From: Octopus vulgaris
Lineage: Eukaryota
Assembly: GCA_951406725.2 (NCBI GenBank)
Contig: OX597819.1
Span: 62,001 to 126,000 of the forward strand
DNA length: 64,000 bases
Direction: 5' to 3'
The notes under the pieces are model-generated. The model saw nothing but the letters and a program-made list of their open reading frames with translations, did no database searches and was not told the origin of the DNA. The translations under genes were made by a program, and so were the position numbers. This document shows, piece after piece, positions 17,453 to 57,265 of the stretch. The stretch's first letter is position 1. Each line of letters begins with the position of its first letter.

Positions 17453-17503
17453 AGCTTCTACAGGACTAGAACTGTTTCATTCAAAAGAAATCATCAGGAA
17501 GCT
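17453..17503 (-). ncRNA. Type I hammerhead ribozyme motif, antisense twin of 17500-17550
   Basis: Exact reverse complement inside the perfect palindrome 17436-17567. Confidence 0.85.
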
Positions 17504-17550
17504 TCCTGATGATTTCTTTTGAATGAAACAGTTCTAGTCCTGTAGAAGCT
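17500..17550 (+). ncRNA. Type I hammerhead ribozyme motif (predicted GUA cleavage after 17544)
   Basis: AGCTTC-CTGATGA-TTTCTTTTGAAT-GAA-ACAG(ttctagtc)CTGT-A-GAAGCT; stem I 6 bp, stem III 4 bp, weak stem II. Confidence 0.85.
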
Positions 17551-18867
17551 CCTTCTATAAAATAAATAAATATATATATATATATATATATATATATACA
17601 CATACATACAAATACACATACACATACACGCAAACACACGCACATATATATATATATATATACATATATATACCTACATATACACACACACACACATATA
17701 TATTTTTTCTCCTCATCTTCCTCCCTTATTTTATTTTTATTTTTATTTCCTTTTCTCTATTTGTCTCTCCACCCTACTCCAAACACATAGAGACACGCAC
17801 ACACACACACACACACACACACACACACACACACACACCCACACACACACACAAAAAAAAAACACACGTACACATAGAGACGCGCACACACACATCTCCA
17901 TAGTACAGTCATATAAAGTAGATGAATTTCTTAGCTGACCGTCTTCAAAATCATAAGGGTTTAATTTATGACCTGCCTACACACCGACACACATTCAGTG
18001 ACGCTAGAATAGAGAAACGCCAAAAGTCCCTAGAACTCCCCTTGGGATTCCAGTCGGCCAAAGGGGATCCTTCTACCACTCCCCACTCCCTTCCTTTCTA
18101 TCTCGTTACCCACGGATACAAAGGCACACACTCACACACACGCACACTCATACACATACACATACACACATGTTCTCTCACTCATTTCCTCCTCATCCAC
18201 TTATACATATGCATATATCTTTCTCTACATGCACATATATATACATATATATACATACACAAATACACACATGCGTACATACATAAATGTACCCACGTTC
18301 ACATAAACATATGCATAATTATGCATATATAAACACACATGTATAAACGTACTTCTGTACACATAAGCACACATAAACATCTGCCCGCTTATATAAACGC
18401 ATATGCACATATAAAACCATATGTGCATATAAACATACATACGCATATATACGCATCCATACGCATATAAATACATATATGCACACATGCATGCATACCT
18501 GTATACATAAATGCATACATGCATATACATACATACACACATATATACATACATGCACATACATATGCATACATAAACATATGCACATATAAATACACAT
18601 ACGCATATCTACACACGTACACTCACACACACTCACACACTGACACACACACACCTATATATACATATAAATGTCTACAAGTCCATACATTTACACACAT
18701 ACACATATATATATATACATATACATATATATATATATATATATGTAGGTCCCGGGTTGATTCGGGGTTAACCACAGTAAATAAGGTACTCAATACATAG
18801 CTGAGTAAAATTAATTTATTATATAGAAGGAGCTTCTACAGGACTAGAACTGTTTCATTCAAGAGAA

Positions 18868-18918
18868 AGCTTCCTGAAGATTTCTCTTGAATGAAACAGT
18901 TCTAGTCCTGTAGAAGCT
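18868..18918 (+). ncRNA. Type I hammerhead ribozyme motif (predicted cleavage after 18912)
   Basis: AGCTTC-CTGAAGA-TTTCTCTTGAAT-GAA-ACAG...CTGT-A-GAAGCT; differs from the 17500 copy only at core N7 and loop 2. Confidence 0.85.
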
Positions 18919-53926: not shown

Positions 53927-54757
53927 TTAGAGTGACTGGAAAACCAGGTTTTGTGGTGGGTCTTGTTTGAGATGTTTCGGGGGGGGGGGGGGAAAAGGTT
54001 TTTTATATGGTTGGGGGAGGTTGTGCCCTGTTAGGAGGGGGTTTGGAGAGTATGTGTATTTGAGGTGCGGTTTGGAATGGTGTTTATGGCGTACAGTGGA
54101 AGTCTGTGTTGTGGGTACTTTTATGAATGGGTTTTGGGATTTATGGTTTAATATGAATTGTGTTTCATAGTTGAGGAAGAAATCTTTGTTGTTTTCCCAG
54201 CGTTTAAGGGAGGTTCGTTCTTCCTTTTCACATTCATCTTTCCATAGTTTAATAACAAGTTCGAGGGGCTGTTCGTTGGTGTGTGAGGTTAGTTCTAGAA
54301 GTATCTCATCGTCTATTTTTGTGTATTTTTGTTCGTGGTTTTGTGCTCTGAGTTTTAGAAGTTCTACTTCAGTTTTCATTTTTTCCAATGTTAGTTTTTC
54401 TCTTAGGGAGCGTTGTTTTTCAGGTTCGTCTGGGATATGTTTGATTTGGAATTTTCGGGGTAGTATGATAGGGGAGGAGTTTAACCATTTGTCGTAAATT
54501 TCAGCTTTGTTTTGGTTTTTGAGCATGTTCCAGAAGAGAAGTTTTCTGTTGTGTAGTTTCTTAGTCCAAGTAGTGATGATCTGGTTTTTAATGCGTTGTA
54601 CTGGGGTTGAAATGTGTTCCTTCTGTGTGTTGAGTGGTGTCTGAGGTCTCTTTGGCGTTGAATTGGTAAGTAGAGTTTTCAGTGTAGTGTTGATTTCATT
54701 TAGGTTTACATCAATCTTATCCGAAAGTAAAGGGAGTGCTGTGGTCCTTATGGACAC
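53927..54757 (-). CDS. Helical/coiled-coil ORF, probably the inverted upstream part of the same Penelope-like element
   Basis: 276-aa non-repetitive ORF with the same A/C-rich sense-strand bias as the RT ORF, abutting it back to back; assignment is inference. Confidence 0.55.
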   Translation of the reverse strand: MSIRTTALPLLSDKIDVNLNEINTTLKTLLTNSTPKRPQTPLNTQKEHISTPVQRIKNQIITTWTKKLHNRKLLFWNMLKNQNKAEIYDKWLNSSPIILPRKFQIKHIPDEPEKQRSLREKLTLEKMKTEVELLKLRAQNHEQKYTKIDDEILLELTSHTNEQPLELVIKLWKDECEKEERTSLKRWENNKDFFLNYETQFILNHKSQNPFIKVPTTQTSTVRHKHHSKPHLKYTYSPNPLLTGHNLPQPYKKPFPPPPPKHLKQDPPQNLVFQSL

Positions 54758-56603
54758 GGAAGTTTATAAACACCTAGTGTTTTCCATGCTTAACAATAAC
54801 ATTTTCTATGAGGTTATTAACAAATACAAACAGCAAAAAACAATCAGAAACCTCACCACACTCATACGCCAACACGGTCAGGGACTCACAGAAAAAGAAA
54901 GGGATTATATCACCATTTTCAAATGCAAGCCCAGCCTCTTTTATGGCCTTCCTAAAATCCATAAAAACAAATACATCACCGAAGCCTGCAAACTCTCCAC
55001 TGACATCCACATCAACATCAAAGCACCGGAGGACCTAAAACTAAGGCCCATCGTGGCTGGTACCTCCTGTGAAACACACCGCCTGAGTAACTTCCTAGAC
55101 ATCCTTTTGAAACCTTTCCTTACCCACATCAAAAGTTTCATTAGGGATGATCTGGACATGCTCAAACACCTCCCGAAAACAGTTAACGAGGAGGCACTCC
55201 TGGTATCCTTTGATGTCATCAACCTCTACACCAACATCCCACATGAGTATGGTATAGAGGCAATTGACTTCTGGCTAGAAAAACACCCAGAGACATTCCC
55301 TGACCGCATCAACAAGTCTTTTATTACAGAATCTCTCAAGTTCATTCTGACAAACAATTTTTTTCTCTTCGACGACACACACTACCGTCAAAAATGTGGT
55401 ATTGCGATGGGTACCAAGGCTGCATCAGTCCTTGCGAACCTCATAATGGGTTACTTCGAACTGTCACTCTATGAAATATCAAGCCAGAAATTTGGACATG
55501 TTTTCCACACCTACCTAATGGAAAACTGGAAAAGGTATTTAGATGATTGTTTCATCATATGGAAAGAACCTTATGAAAAACTCCTGGAATTCAAAACCAT
55601 ACTAAACAACATACATCCCAACATCCAATTCACTATGGAATTAAGCAAACATCATCTCCCATTCCTTGATCTCCTAATTATAAAAACACCTAAGAACCAA
55701 ATCATAACAGACATCTACCACAAACCTACAGACTCACAACAATACCTCCTCTTTAGTTCATGCCACCCAAAACACACCAAGACAAATATCCCTTTCAATT
55801 TAGCTAAAAGGGTATGCACCATTGTCTCGGATCCAAAAACACGAGAAATACGCCTTCAAGACCTCAAAAAAACACTATTACAACGTCAATATCCCTCCAC
55901 CCTTATAGAGTATGGAATAAAACGCGCCAAAGAACTAGATAACACTACACTGAAAACCACCCAACCTAACACCACACACAACCTCAAAATACTTCCATAC
56001 ACTTCCACCCACAACCCCAAAAATATCGAAGCATACACCACAATCATACAAAACCTCAGTCTACTGTCAACAGACCCAAAAATGAAAAACATAAATACAC
56101 ACAAAATCCTCAAATGTAAAAGGCAACACAAATCTTTAAAAAAACTCTTGACAAATGCCAAACTTCACACACCACATCCACCCCCAACAGTAAAAAAATG
56201 TGCACGCTCAAACTGTGGTACCTGCCCCTTTCTACTTGAAGGCTCTGAATTTACCTTCAAACAAGGTACGAAGTTTAAAATCAAGACTAACTTCTCCTGT
56301 TCCTCCGAGAACCTTATCTACGTTCTCACATGCGCTGGTTGCCAACATAATTATGTTGGACAAACGAGTCTCCCGTTACGTAAACGAGTAACGGTGCATA
56401 AAGAACAAATAAATCTCCCGGAATACCGACAAATTCCACTGAGTGACCACTTAGACTCATGTGCTAAAGACTTAAACCCCAAATTCTATATATTCCCCTT
56501 CTACCAATGTAAAGACGGGATCACCACACAGGAGAGAATTAACAAGGAGAATCTCTTTATTGAAAAATTCCAAACACAACTTAATATGCAAACTCCTCGT
56601 TGA
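54663..56603 (+). CDS. Penelope-like reverse transcriptase and GIY-YIG endonuclease (5'-truncated; homology starts near 54728)
   Basis: KGSAVVLMD, FYGLPKIHK, LRPIV, FDVINLYTNIP, GIAMGT, RYLDD, FLDL, YHKPTD, CARSNCGTC, LIYVLTC..C...YVGQT; uninterrupted frame. Confidence 0.93.
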   Translation: MVSRVFSVVLISFRFTSILSESKGSAVVLMDTEVYKHLVFSMLNNNIFYEVINKYKQQKTIRNLTTLIRQHGQGLTEKERDYITIFKCKPSLFYGLPKIHKNKYITEACKLSTDIHINIKAPEDLKLRPIVAGTSCETHRLSNFLDILLKPFLTHIKSFIRDDLDMLKHLPKTVNEEALLVSFDVINLYTNIPHEYGIEAIDFWLEKHPETFPDRINKSFITESLKFILTNNFFLFDDTHYRQKCGIAMGTKAASVLANLIMGYFELSLYEISSQKFGHVFHTYLMENWKRYLDDCFIIWKEPYEKLLEFKTILNNIHPNIQFTMELSKHHLPFLDLLIIKTPKNQIITDIYHKPTDSQQYLLFSSCHPKHTKTNIPFNLAKRVCTIVSDPKTREIRLQDLKKTLLQRQYPSTLIEYGIKRAKELDNTTLKTTQPNTTHNLKILPYTSTHNPKNIEAYTTIIQNLSLLSTDPKMKNINTHKILKCKRQHKSLKKLLTNAKLHTPHPPPTVKKCARSNCGTCPFLLEGSEFTFKQGTKFKIKTNFSCSSENLIYVLTCAGCQHNYVGQTSLPLRKRVTVHKEQINLPEYRQIPLSDHLDSCAKDLNPKFYIFPFYQCKDGITTQERINKENLFIEKFQTQLNMQTPR

Positions 56604-57224
56604 TCAAACTTCCTTTTTCTACCTCACTCTTCATGGATGGACTAACACAAATATATAAAGATACCATGCATTCATCACTTCAAGCTAAAACTTATATTCT
56701 TTAAATATCATTTTTACTATTGTTGTTATTACTATCATTTTTATTATAAATGATATGACAATCTGAAATGCAATTGTCTATGCAGATTTATATAATTAGA
56801 AAATAATATAAATATAAAGTGTTAAAATCTGAAAGTTAAGTTAACAAACAATTATATAAAAAAGATAACGCAAATGAAGCTAAAATGATAATTTTATAAT
56901 TTGGGTTTTACCAACAGCCTTTATTGAAGAACTCAAAAGAGTTGTCTCCCCTTACTCACAACACAGGAACTGAAGAACCACAATTACTACTACTTCCTGA
57001 ATTAAACCAAACAACACATGCTCTTAATCCCATTGGATCCTAATACCTCAAGGTAATTTTTTCGTGAACAATCATTAAACTCAAGATACACAACGAACTC
57101 ACAATGTATCGGAGTACCTATTTTTTAATTTTTGTACATTTTTATCATTATTCTTTTGCAAAAAACAATGCAATTTTCTCTTTTTCCCTTTTCTAATTTT
57201 TAAAAAAACTTCTTAAAACATAAA

Positions 57225-57265
57225 TATTCTTGACAAGTCATACAATGACGAAAACCGGTTGAATA
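57225..57265 (+). ncRNA. Hammerhead motif, U3-A8 variant (right arm)
   Basis: TATTC-TTGACAA-GTCA(tacaa)TGAC-GAA-A(accgg)T-T-GAATA; palindromic AACCGGTT at stem III. Confidence 0.75.

Follow-up and report, generated by a model that had tools for sequence, protein, structure and literature searches.

Hammerhead motifs clustered in a stretch of the Octopus vulgaris genome are probably 3' ends of Penelope-like elements inserted in (TA)n

We analysed a stretch of 64,000 nucleotides of the Octopus vulgaris genome (assembly GCA_951406725.2, contig OX597819.1, positions 62,001 to 126,000 of the forward strand), which we call the window, and in which an earlier note had reported ten hammerhead motifs of five sequence families between positions 17453 and 57265. 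We consider it highly probable that each of these motifs is a minimal type I hammerhead and that they sit in the 3' ends (pseudo-long terminal repeats, pLTRs) of five coding families of Penelope-like elements (PLEs) and of one short non-coding tandem family, all in (TA)n, and that the mirror pairs among them likely arose when both cut target strands primed reverse transcription on one source RNA at two fixed sites. The coding families are called F1 to F5 and the non-coding one F6.

Hammerhead motifs in the window

All ten motifs, with the same starts and strands, were recovered by a relaxed descriptor of the minimal type I hammerhead, together with an eleventh at 31583-31643 (+). The relaxed form was composed after the motifs had been seen, which favours its figure. 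The strict form, with the core CUGANGA/GAAA, matches the window 8 times. In 100 block-wise dinucleotide shuffles of the window the relaxed form averaged 0.01 matches (maximum 1) and the strict form gave none, so that motif density is not that of shuffled sequence. A previous descriptor with an obligatory 10.1-11.1 pair and loop 3 missed nine of the ten motifs. No hammerhead from Rfam appears among the 150 of 176 window matches listed or among all 34 matches for 30300-36100, and the Rfam microRNA matches were rejected as spurious (hairpins and microsatellites).

The motifs starting at 17453 and 17500, at 30330 and 30461, and at 52311 and 57225 are opposite arms of inverted repeats. Thus, the ten motifs all exist but represent only seven insertions, and the eleven represent eight. 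The five families first proposed all proved to be PLE 3' ends, but the sixth, F6, represented by the motif at 31583 (+), had been overlooked. The canonical three-way junction core CUGANGA/GAAA/NUH is found in F1, F2, the F3 copy of the window and F6. Three of the noted cores are non-canonical: A6U in the motif at 35971, and a U3-A8 pair with an extra A in GAAA in those at 52311 and 57225. The three plus-strand copies of F1 differ only at N7 and in loops 2 and 3, as had been observed. The first (TA)n of at least five repeats lies 18-186 nt past the predicted cut site, and at 31999 (-) a (TATC)n run intervenes.

Exact patterns for F1, F2 and F3 match the genome (2.8 Gb) 8193, 1057 and 3377 times, with 0 matches for the reversed controls. 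About 0.3 matches to these three families would be expected per 64 kb, and the window has 8 (five F1, including one truncated arm, two F2 and one F3); the adjoining 70 kb contains one descriptor match and three family anchors. DNA searches for F4, F5 and F6 gave 2327, 1625 and 2722 first-look candidates, which are not copy numbers. The window is a hot spot with an atypical motif density that is raised by paired arms and nesting. The cluster forms partly because the 3' untranslated region (UTR) of F1 supplies 8-24 (TA)n arrays as new targets.

Coding partners and clades

The motifs at 35971 (-), 52311 (-) and 57225 (+) each lie 3' of, and co-oriented with, PLE coding sequence for reverse transcriptase (RT) and GIY-YIG endonuclease. 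[quoted passage not shown] For F1, a genome search from the endonuclease fragment at 19810-20178 gave a complete 4782-nt tandem unit whose frame encodes 722 aa, and in 15 of 20 loci the motif lies 3' of the endonuclease. F2 has frames of 838-862 aa in a 6310-nt unit (motif downstream in 11 of 12 loci), and F3 has a frame of 717 aa in a 2591-nt unit, with the motif downstream in all 8 long loci and in 22 of the 30 short ones. The F4 tandem unit is 4285 nt long. Partial tandems, with an open reading frame (ORF) placed between two pLTRs (pLTR-ORF-pLTR), occur at loci L049, L382, L391 and L318. In contrast, no PLE frame was found beside the 563-nt tandem unit of F6 in 30 loci, save one match on the opposite strand.

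F1, F2 and F3 have protein motifs that would place them in the Hydra clade. All three have the change of DKG to DKT, the N-terminal RWK of F3 aligns with KWK in F2 and RWR in F1, the linker is CxCx5C, CxxC and CxH surround E and N, and CCHH is absent; the three families also show (TA)n insertion and a 3' hammerhead. F4 and F5, with a CX2-5CxxC linker and a CCHH endonuclease, appear by the same kind of evidence to be of Neptune/Nematis type, and these signs do not separate Neptune from Nematis.

Non-coding tandem units that each carry a type I hammerhead are found in F6 and in one F3 array, not in F1-F5 of the window, and only these two look retrozyme-like. The F3 array (G000:C16:47252740-47257427, locus L317) has 42 tandem units of 109 nt, each an F3 hammerhead end, and is closed by an inverted piece; it could be either a very short retrozyme-like array or a satellite array. 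The F3 copies with long open frames (L391-L398) have the core CCGA(A/U)GA (U4C), and their 3' UTR measures about 237 nt; the 3' UTRs of the remaining F3 copies are mostly 0.4-1.2 kb long.

Insertion in (TA)n and the one-tail rule

An enrichment check for proximity to (TA)n, proposed in the earlier note, came out clearly positive. Untailed ends have TA within 40 nt in 54 of 55 cases for F1, 45/47 for F2, 34/38 for F3, 32/36 for F4 and 23/36 for F6, compared to 12% of random places in the same loci (1107/9240) and 4.6% in the window. With a looser test, tailed ends are followed by TA in 51/53 (F1), 45/45 (F2), 23/27 (F3), 0/3 (F4) and 20/31 (F6) cases; many of the misses are likely tandem junctions, as was observed for F6. 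A looser criterion was also used for F5, where 33 of the 35 ends of all kinds are followed by TA.

Insertions of each family stop at one of two fixed termini, both of which lie beyond the predicted cut. One is a short end; the other is a long end that also includes a tail, about 50-120 nt taken from the 5' region of the next unit. The cDNA reads through the predicted cut site. Where a tandem unit or a tailed copy allowed the comparison, 2-7 nt of TA-like sequence are common to end and target.

The two termini are not distributed independently in inverted pairs. With all loci gathered, exactly one tail is present in 119 of 123 distinct pairs (F1 34/34, F2 42/42, F3 21/23, F5 5/5, F6 17/19), and independence would give one tail in about half of them. 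Six F6 pairs that seemed to have two tails were mostly internal tandem junctions, and the count was redone by outer ends. The arms of a pair also share subfamily variants, in 24 of 26 F1 pairs (shuffled pairings: mean 4.5, maximum 12) and in 28 of 31 F2 pairs (mean 13.2, maximum 18), and the arms that mismatch differ at a single site. F1 insertions span 38 nt to 7 kb continuously. Six of 23 short F1 hairpins are joined exactly at the stem I palindrome AGCT. These six fall in four loop-2 variants, so the shared junction recurs independently; the other 17 junctions differ.

Conservation of the fold

Selection on the fold had been proposed from the F1 copies, and a count of inherited variants (those common to at least three copies and 5%) agrees with it in part. 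Over all loci such variants affect 7 of 163 core and stem columns and 111 of 402 loop and flank columns. Among loci that were not fetched with the family's own motif (n = 40, 23, 33, 5 and 63 copies of the families other than F5) the numbers are 3/163 and 89/402, with p = 2e-11 for columns that are not independent. The variable positions are N7, the loops and H17; core and stems are nearly without inherited change. However, rare changes are about as frequent in one class as in another (in F1, 0.007 in the core, 0.009 in stems, 0.008 in loops and 0.010 in flanks). Because these post-insertion changes affect core, stem and loop at similar rates, we place the selection on the source elements and not on the inserted copies. 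The sequences thus support a fold conserved in source elements while inserted copies decay.

Changes in the core are characteristic of some families. U is found at position 6 in 49 of 60 F4-like copies, with N7 taking all four bases (core CUGUNGA), U3-A8 and the extra A are present in 36 of 36 F5 copies, 35 of which are identical, and U4C is found in the F3 copies of the eight long-frame loci. Lunse et al. 2017 reportedly treated PLE hammerhead variants and may already describe A6U and the extra A. For the question of which bases of the hammerhead core a PLE requires, the abundant families that have A6U, U4C or an extra A offer natural tests. Bystander sequence of loci L173, L018, L080, L136, L179, L234, L372, L385 and L397 also contains hammerhead-like motifs that belong to other families, and the core of some of them has U4C or U3-A8.

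The hammerhead is probably retained by selection in source elements, where it is predicted to cut tandem precursor RNA as a dimer or with protein help; short copies scattered through the genome would probably be inert. Two F2 copies fold together into a dimeric hammerhead, and the short hairpin insertions form long duplexes in which the motif is buried. Read-through transcription of 17382-17570, 18745-18946 and 30100-30594 would give near-perfect RNA duplexes of 60-180 bp; that the many such sites genome-wide are substrates for editing or small RNAs is speculation.

It is conceivable, if somewhat unlikely, that the hammerheads are passengers or relics whose cleavage is not needed and that are kept for another reason, such as protein binding or RNA dimerisation. 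In vitro, insertion by a PLE of the anole is unimpaired by hammerhead mutants (PMC11167929), the cDNAs here traverse the cut site, and there are family-wide core variants. However, the near absence of inherited change in core and stems, with variation at N7, loops and H17, is the pattern that a catalytic fold would be expected to show. This alternative bears on the function of the motifs only and not on their identity.

Origin of the inverted pairs

Twin priming on one source RNA is the simplest reading of the pairs, since in vitro work on the anole PLE found two start sites that bound the tail and extension from both strands (PMC11167929). The GIY-YIG domain would nick both (TA)n strands, one strand would prime at the long-end site and the opposite strand at the short-end site, and the two cDNAs would join at microhomology, in F1 often at the stem I palindrome AGCT. 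The template RNA would be uncleaved at that hammerhead.

We speculate that PLEs in general integrate by programmed twin priming, in which one ribonucleoprotein opens both (TA)n strands and starts one cDNA at each of two fixed UA-rich sites of the same RNA. This single rule could explain the tail as well as the inverted pLTR and the mini-copies in hairpin form across Hydra-clade elements, Neptune-type elements and non-coding passengers, and one Hydra family would carry kilobases of microsatellite that seed landing pads for itself and for other TA-targeting hitchhikers. We see this wider proposal as evenly balanced between being right and being wrong. The rule of one tail per pair, together with arms of the same source, is a sharp prediction for the existing in vitro PLE assay.

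The arms could instead come from fold-back of a single cDNA (snap-back self-copying) or from later DNA repair, with the tail difference arising when an endonuclease resolves the intermediate. The identical source of the arms and the preference of F1 junctions for a palindrome fit such an origin, and Craig et al. 2021 (PMC8557442) ascribe the tail to endonuclease-mediated resolution. However, the tail sequence cannot arise by fold-back of a short-end cDNA, the F6 piece found in F1 UTRs (below) has non-overlapping arms that fit two separately primed cDNAs, and the tail ends coincide with in vitro RT start sites of another PLE (PMC11167929). We therefore judge fold-back or repair to be unlikely.

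It is quite improbable that the short paired copies are a non-autonomous retrozyme family, or one resembling miniature inverted-repeat transposable elements (MITEs), that moves as a hairpin unit. The exact junction common to 6 of 23 short F1 hairpins, the prevalence of short F1 ends (the upstream unique segment is missing from 25 of 30 position-ordered ends) and the 563-nt non-coding unit of F6 speak for such a family. But the six identical junctions span four loop-2 variants and the other 17 differ, which led us to reject the hairpin copies as a MITE family; in addition, the spans run continuously and hairpin transcripts would hide the motif in a long duplex. The explanation holds for F6 alone. 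Of the TA-targeted PLE/retrozyme system with several lineages that the earlier note inferred, the PLE link, the (TA)n targeting and the lineages stand, but we read the short copies in pairs as coding PLEs inserted in inverted form, with extreme 5' truncation and with junctions that vary, and not as retrozymes. Lastly, chance matches in AT-rich repeats, which the post hoc fitting of the relaxed descriptor might suggest, have a negligible probability and are refuted by the eight strict matches against none in 100 shuffles and by thousands of copies fixed behind PLE frames.

Several points weigh against twin priming or against the identity and function that we assign to the motifs. Four of the 123 pairs violate the one-tail rule. 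Twin priming is not obligatory, since a second arm is absent from the F4 copy of the window. Arms that are identical would be expected just as well from two transcripts of one locus or from DNA fold-back. The clades were called by motifs and not by a tree with reference sequences, and the selection test used non-independent columns in structure classes of our own making. Compensatory double changes were seen within no family but only between sister families, where two examples were read and two sister motifs show one in stem I. Core changes of the kind that F4 (A6U), F5 (extra A) and, with U4C, young F3 copies have often lower activity (PMC3088659), and at minimum energy only F1 folds as a hammerhead when monomers are isolated, F2-F6 favouring other folds.

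The F1 3' UTR as microsatellite cargo

In 15 copies of F1, the UTR from stop codon to motif is 2014-3619 nt long, 54-80% of it is tandem repeat, and about 80% is purine-pyrimidine alternating (window, 51%), with a G/T-rich sense strand and 8-24 arrays of (TA)n with at least six repeats. The 3-4-kb 3' UTR of F2 has no (TA)n arrays of at least six repeats. F1 UTRs of one subfamily on different contigs have hundreds of non-simple 14-mers in common. A small inverted F6 insertion occupies one inherited site, about 320-660 nt past the stop, in 9 of the 15 (L049, L050, L051, L052, L056, L057, L060, L063 and L065); its arms are non-overlapping and correspond to unit positions 73-207, inverted, and 230-304. 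This F6 piece is a hitchhiker inside an active F1 element. The shared 14-mers and the inherited F6 piece indicate that the microsatellite body is copied with F1 and has been an insertion target.

Both F1 hairpins of the window lie within (TA)n arrays of an F1 UTR. A k-mer nesting test on 30 position-ordered F1 ends gave no general excess, and both the inherited F6 piece and the turnover of UTRs from one subfamily to another confound it. Only 5 of these 30 ends extend to the last unique UTR segment, and none of them clearly sits inside another F1 UTR. Because F1 ends are mostly short, the F1 share of the genome's microsatellites is probably small. Nevertheless, some apparent microsatellite DNA is retrotransposed cargo with its own targets.

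Relation to known systems

Minimal PLE-end hammerheads, (TA)n targeting, inverted one-tailed copies and an octopus Hydra element are already published, and our finding is a dense local sample of that system whose value lies in the statistics that it opens up. Cervera and de la Pena 2014 (PMC4209133) described minimal hammerheads at the ends of PLEs, pairs on opposite strands at a spacing of 100-700 bp, the variant U3-A8 and dimers that cleave weakly. Craig et al. 2021 (PMC8557442) described inverted truncated copies with an often one-sided tail and a (TA)n bias, included Hydra-1_Obim of Octopus bimaculoides, which has a (TA)n preference and a hammerhead, and named the origin of the inverted ends and tail as an open question. 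PLE hammerheads and their core variants are also treated in PMC6765202 and PMC3088659, and an octopus repeat annotation has 31 recently active Penelope-like families (PMC13282606).

Less described are the single tail in 119 of 123 pairs with same-source arms, the self-targeting F1 UTR of 2-3.6 kb and the family-wide core variants (A6U, U4C). Our literature search, which covered few subscription papers, found no report of a strict one-tail rule, PLE twin priming, microsatellite cargo or an A6U hammerhead family, and the excerpt of PMC3124438 has nothing on microsatellite cargo.

The closest known relatives of F1-F3 are Hydra-clade endonuclease-positive (EN+) PLEs such as Hydra-1_Obim and Penelope-13_HM (PMC8557442). 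The likeness includes DKT, an RWK-like motif, CxCx5C, CxxC/CxH, the lack of CCHH and the (TA)n target; a 3' hammerhead with a short stem III and often U-U at 10.1-11.1; and inverted 5'-truncated copies with the motif on both strands and a tail at one end. However, published Hydra elements are mostly under 3 kb, whereas F1 reaches 4.8 kb and more and F2 6.3 kb, with 3' UTRs of 2-4 kb that are microsatellite-like in F1. The tails here are about 50-120 nt and not 30-40 nt long, the Hydra-1_Obim hammerhead differs in sequence from our motifs, and copy numbers here are in the thousands.

The metazoan minimal hammerheads of PMC4209133 resemble ours in the minimal or palindromic stem III, the extra base between 9 and 10.1, U3-A8, the pairs at 100-700 bp, the many families per genome and the predominance of truncated copies. 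A6U (F4) and the extra A in GAAA (F5) are not among the variants in the excerpt of that paper. Poseidon of the green anole, studied in vitro by Frangieh et al. 2024 (PMC11167929), likewise has two RT start sites that define the tail, cutting and extension of both strands, an AT-rich target and an uncleaved RNA template. It belongs to another clade, and that study saw neither a difference between strands in the start site nor homology with the cut DNA, whereas the pairs here combine the two kinds of start and share 2-7 nt of microhomology to TA. Lastly, F6 and the 109-nt F3 array are tandem and non-coding with one hammerhead per unit, similar to metazoan non-LTR (non-long terminal repeat) retrozymes (Cervera and de la Pena 2020, PMC7229834; Li et al. 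2026, preprint 10.64898/2026.07.22.740005). In contrast, F1-F5 are ends of coding elements, and the 563-nt unit of F6 is longer than the 200-400-nt monomers in the passages covered.

Elements of the window

The F1 elements, presumably of the Hydra clade, are nested. An inverted insertion at 17149-21098 has a long arm on the minus strand (20150 to 17149), whose 3' end is lost next to a LINE (long interspersed nuclear element) fragment, and a short plus-strand arm (20151-21098) with a short end and a motif at 21034-21084 (predicted cut after 21078). The long arm contains the C-terminal part of the GIY-YIG endonuclease at 19810-20150 (-), with CxxC and CxH around E and N and no CCHH, and the microsatellite-like 3' UTR at 17149-19809 (-), whose internal (TA)n arrays host two hairpin insertions. 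The first hairpin (17382-17570) has a tailed left arm, a junction at the stem I palindrome AGCT and motifs at 17453-17503 (-) and 17500-17550 (+), with predicted cuts after 17459 and 17544. The second (18745-18946) has a tailed minus-strand arm without the CUGANGA strand and a motif at 18868-18918 (+), predicted to be cut after 18912.

Three further insertions lie between 30100 and 32075. The short inverted F2 insertion (30100-30594, putatively Hydra clade) stands between two (TA)n arrays, with a tailed left arm and motifs at 30330-30372 (-) and 30461-30503 (+), predicted to be cut after 30334 and 30499. The F6 insertion (31311-31824), also inverted and with a tailed left arm, derives from the 563-nt non-coding unit; its plus-strand motif (31583-31643) has a palindromic stem III and a predicted cut after 31638. 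The F3 3' end (31962-32075, minus strand, likewise a Hydra-clade candidate) contains the motif at 31999-32059, with a predicted cut after 32004, and of its second arm just about 10 nt are left.

The two remaining elements are of putative Neptune/Nematis type. The 5'-truncated F4 copy (35843-37834, minus strand) encodes the 3' part of RT and GIY-YIG, has (TA)n on both sides and no second arm, and carries its motif with the A6U core at 35971-36008 (-). The F5 inverted insertion (52170-57340) has a tailed left arm, and its arms, 52115-53784 and 55796-57459 with flanking TA included, are 97% alike. An open frame at 54645-56603 (+) encodes RT and GIY-YIG (652 aa, stop to stop), and the motifs lie at 52311-52351 (-), with U3-A8 and the extra A in GAAA, and at 57225-57265 (+), with predicted cuts after 52316 and 57260. 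At 53784-54763 (-), the left arm passes straight from N-terminal coding sequence into the RT thumb with the RT core absent, which could reflect either a deletion or a template jump.

Other repeats surround the PLEs. The segment at 57480-57600 is presumably the tRNA-like head of a short interspersed nuclear element (SINE); ARAGORN found no tRNA. We take 33514-34640 (-) to be fragments of a mariner-like transposase, and 21809-22270, 32190-32755 and 34806-35453 to be CR1-like RT fragments. LINE pieces at 9180-16700 (-), which we assume to be L1/Tx1-like, include an endonuclease-RT frame (10468-12630), an upstream frame with a CCHC knuckle (12970-14622) and, at 15042-15844, a C-terminal coding segment in the form of a 204-bp tandem repeat. 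The right end of the window (58261-64000) has LINE fragments that carry a restriction-like endonuclease motif, lie among (TTA)n/(ATT)n arrays and, in our estimation, resemble Dong/R4 elements that target (TAA)n.

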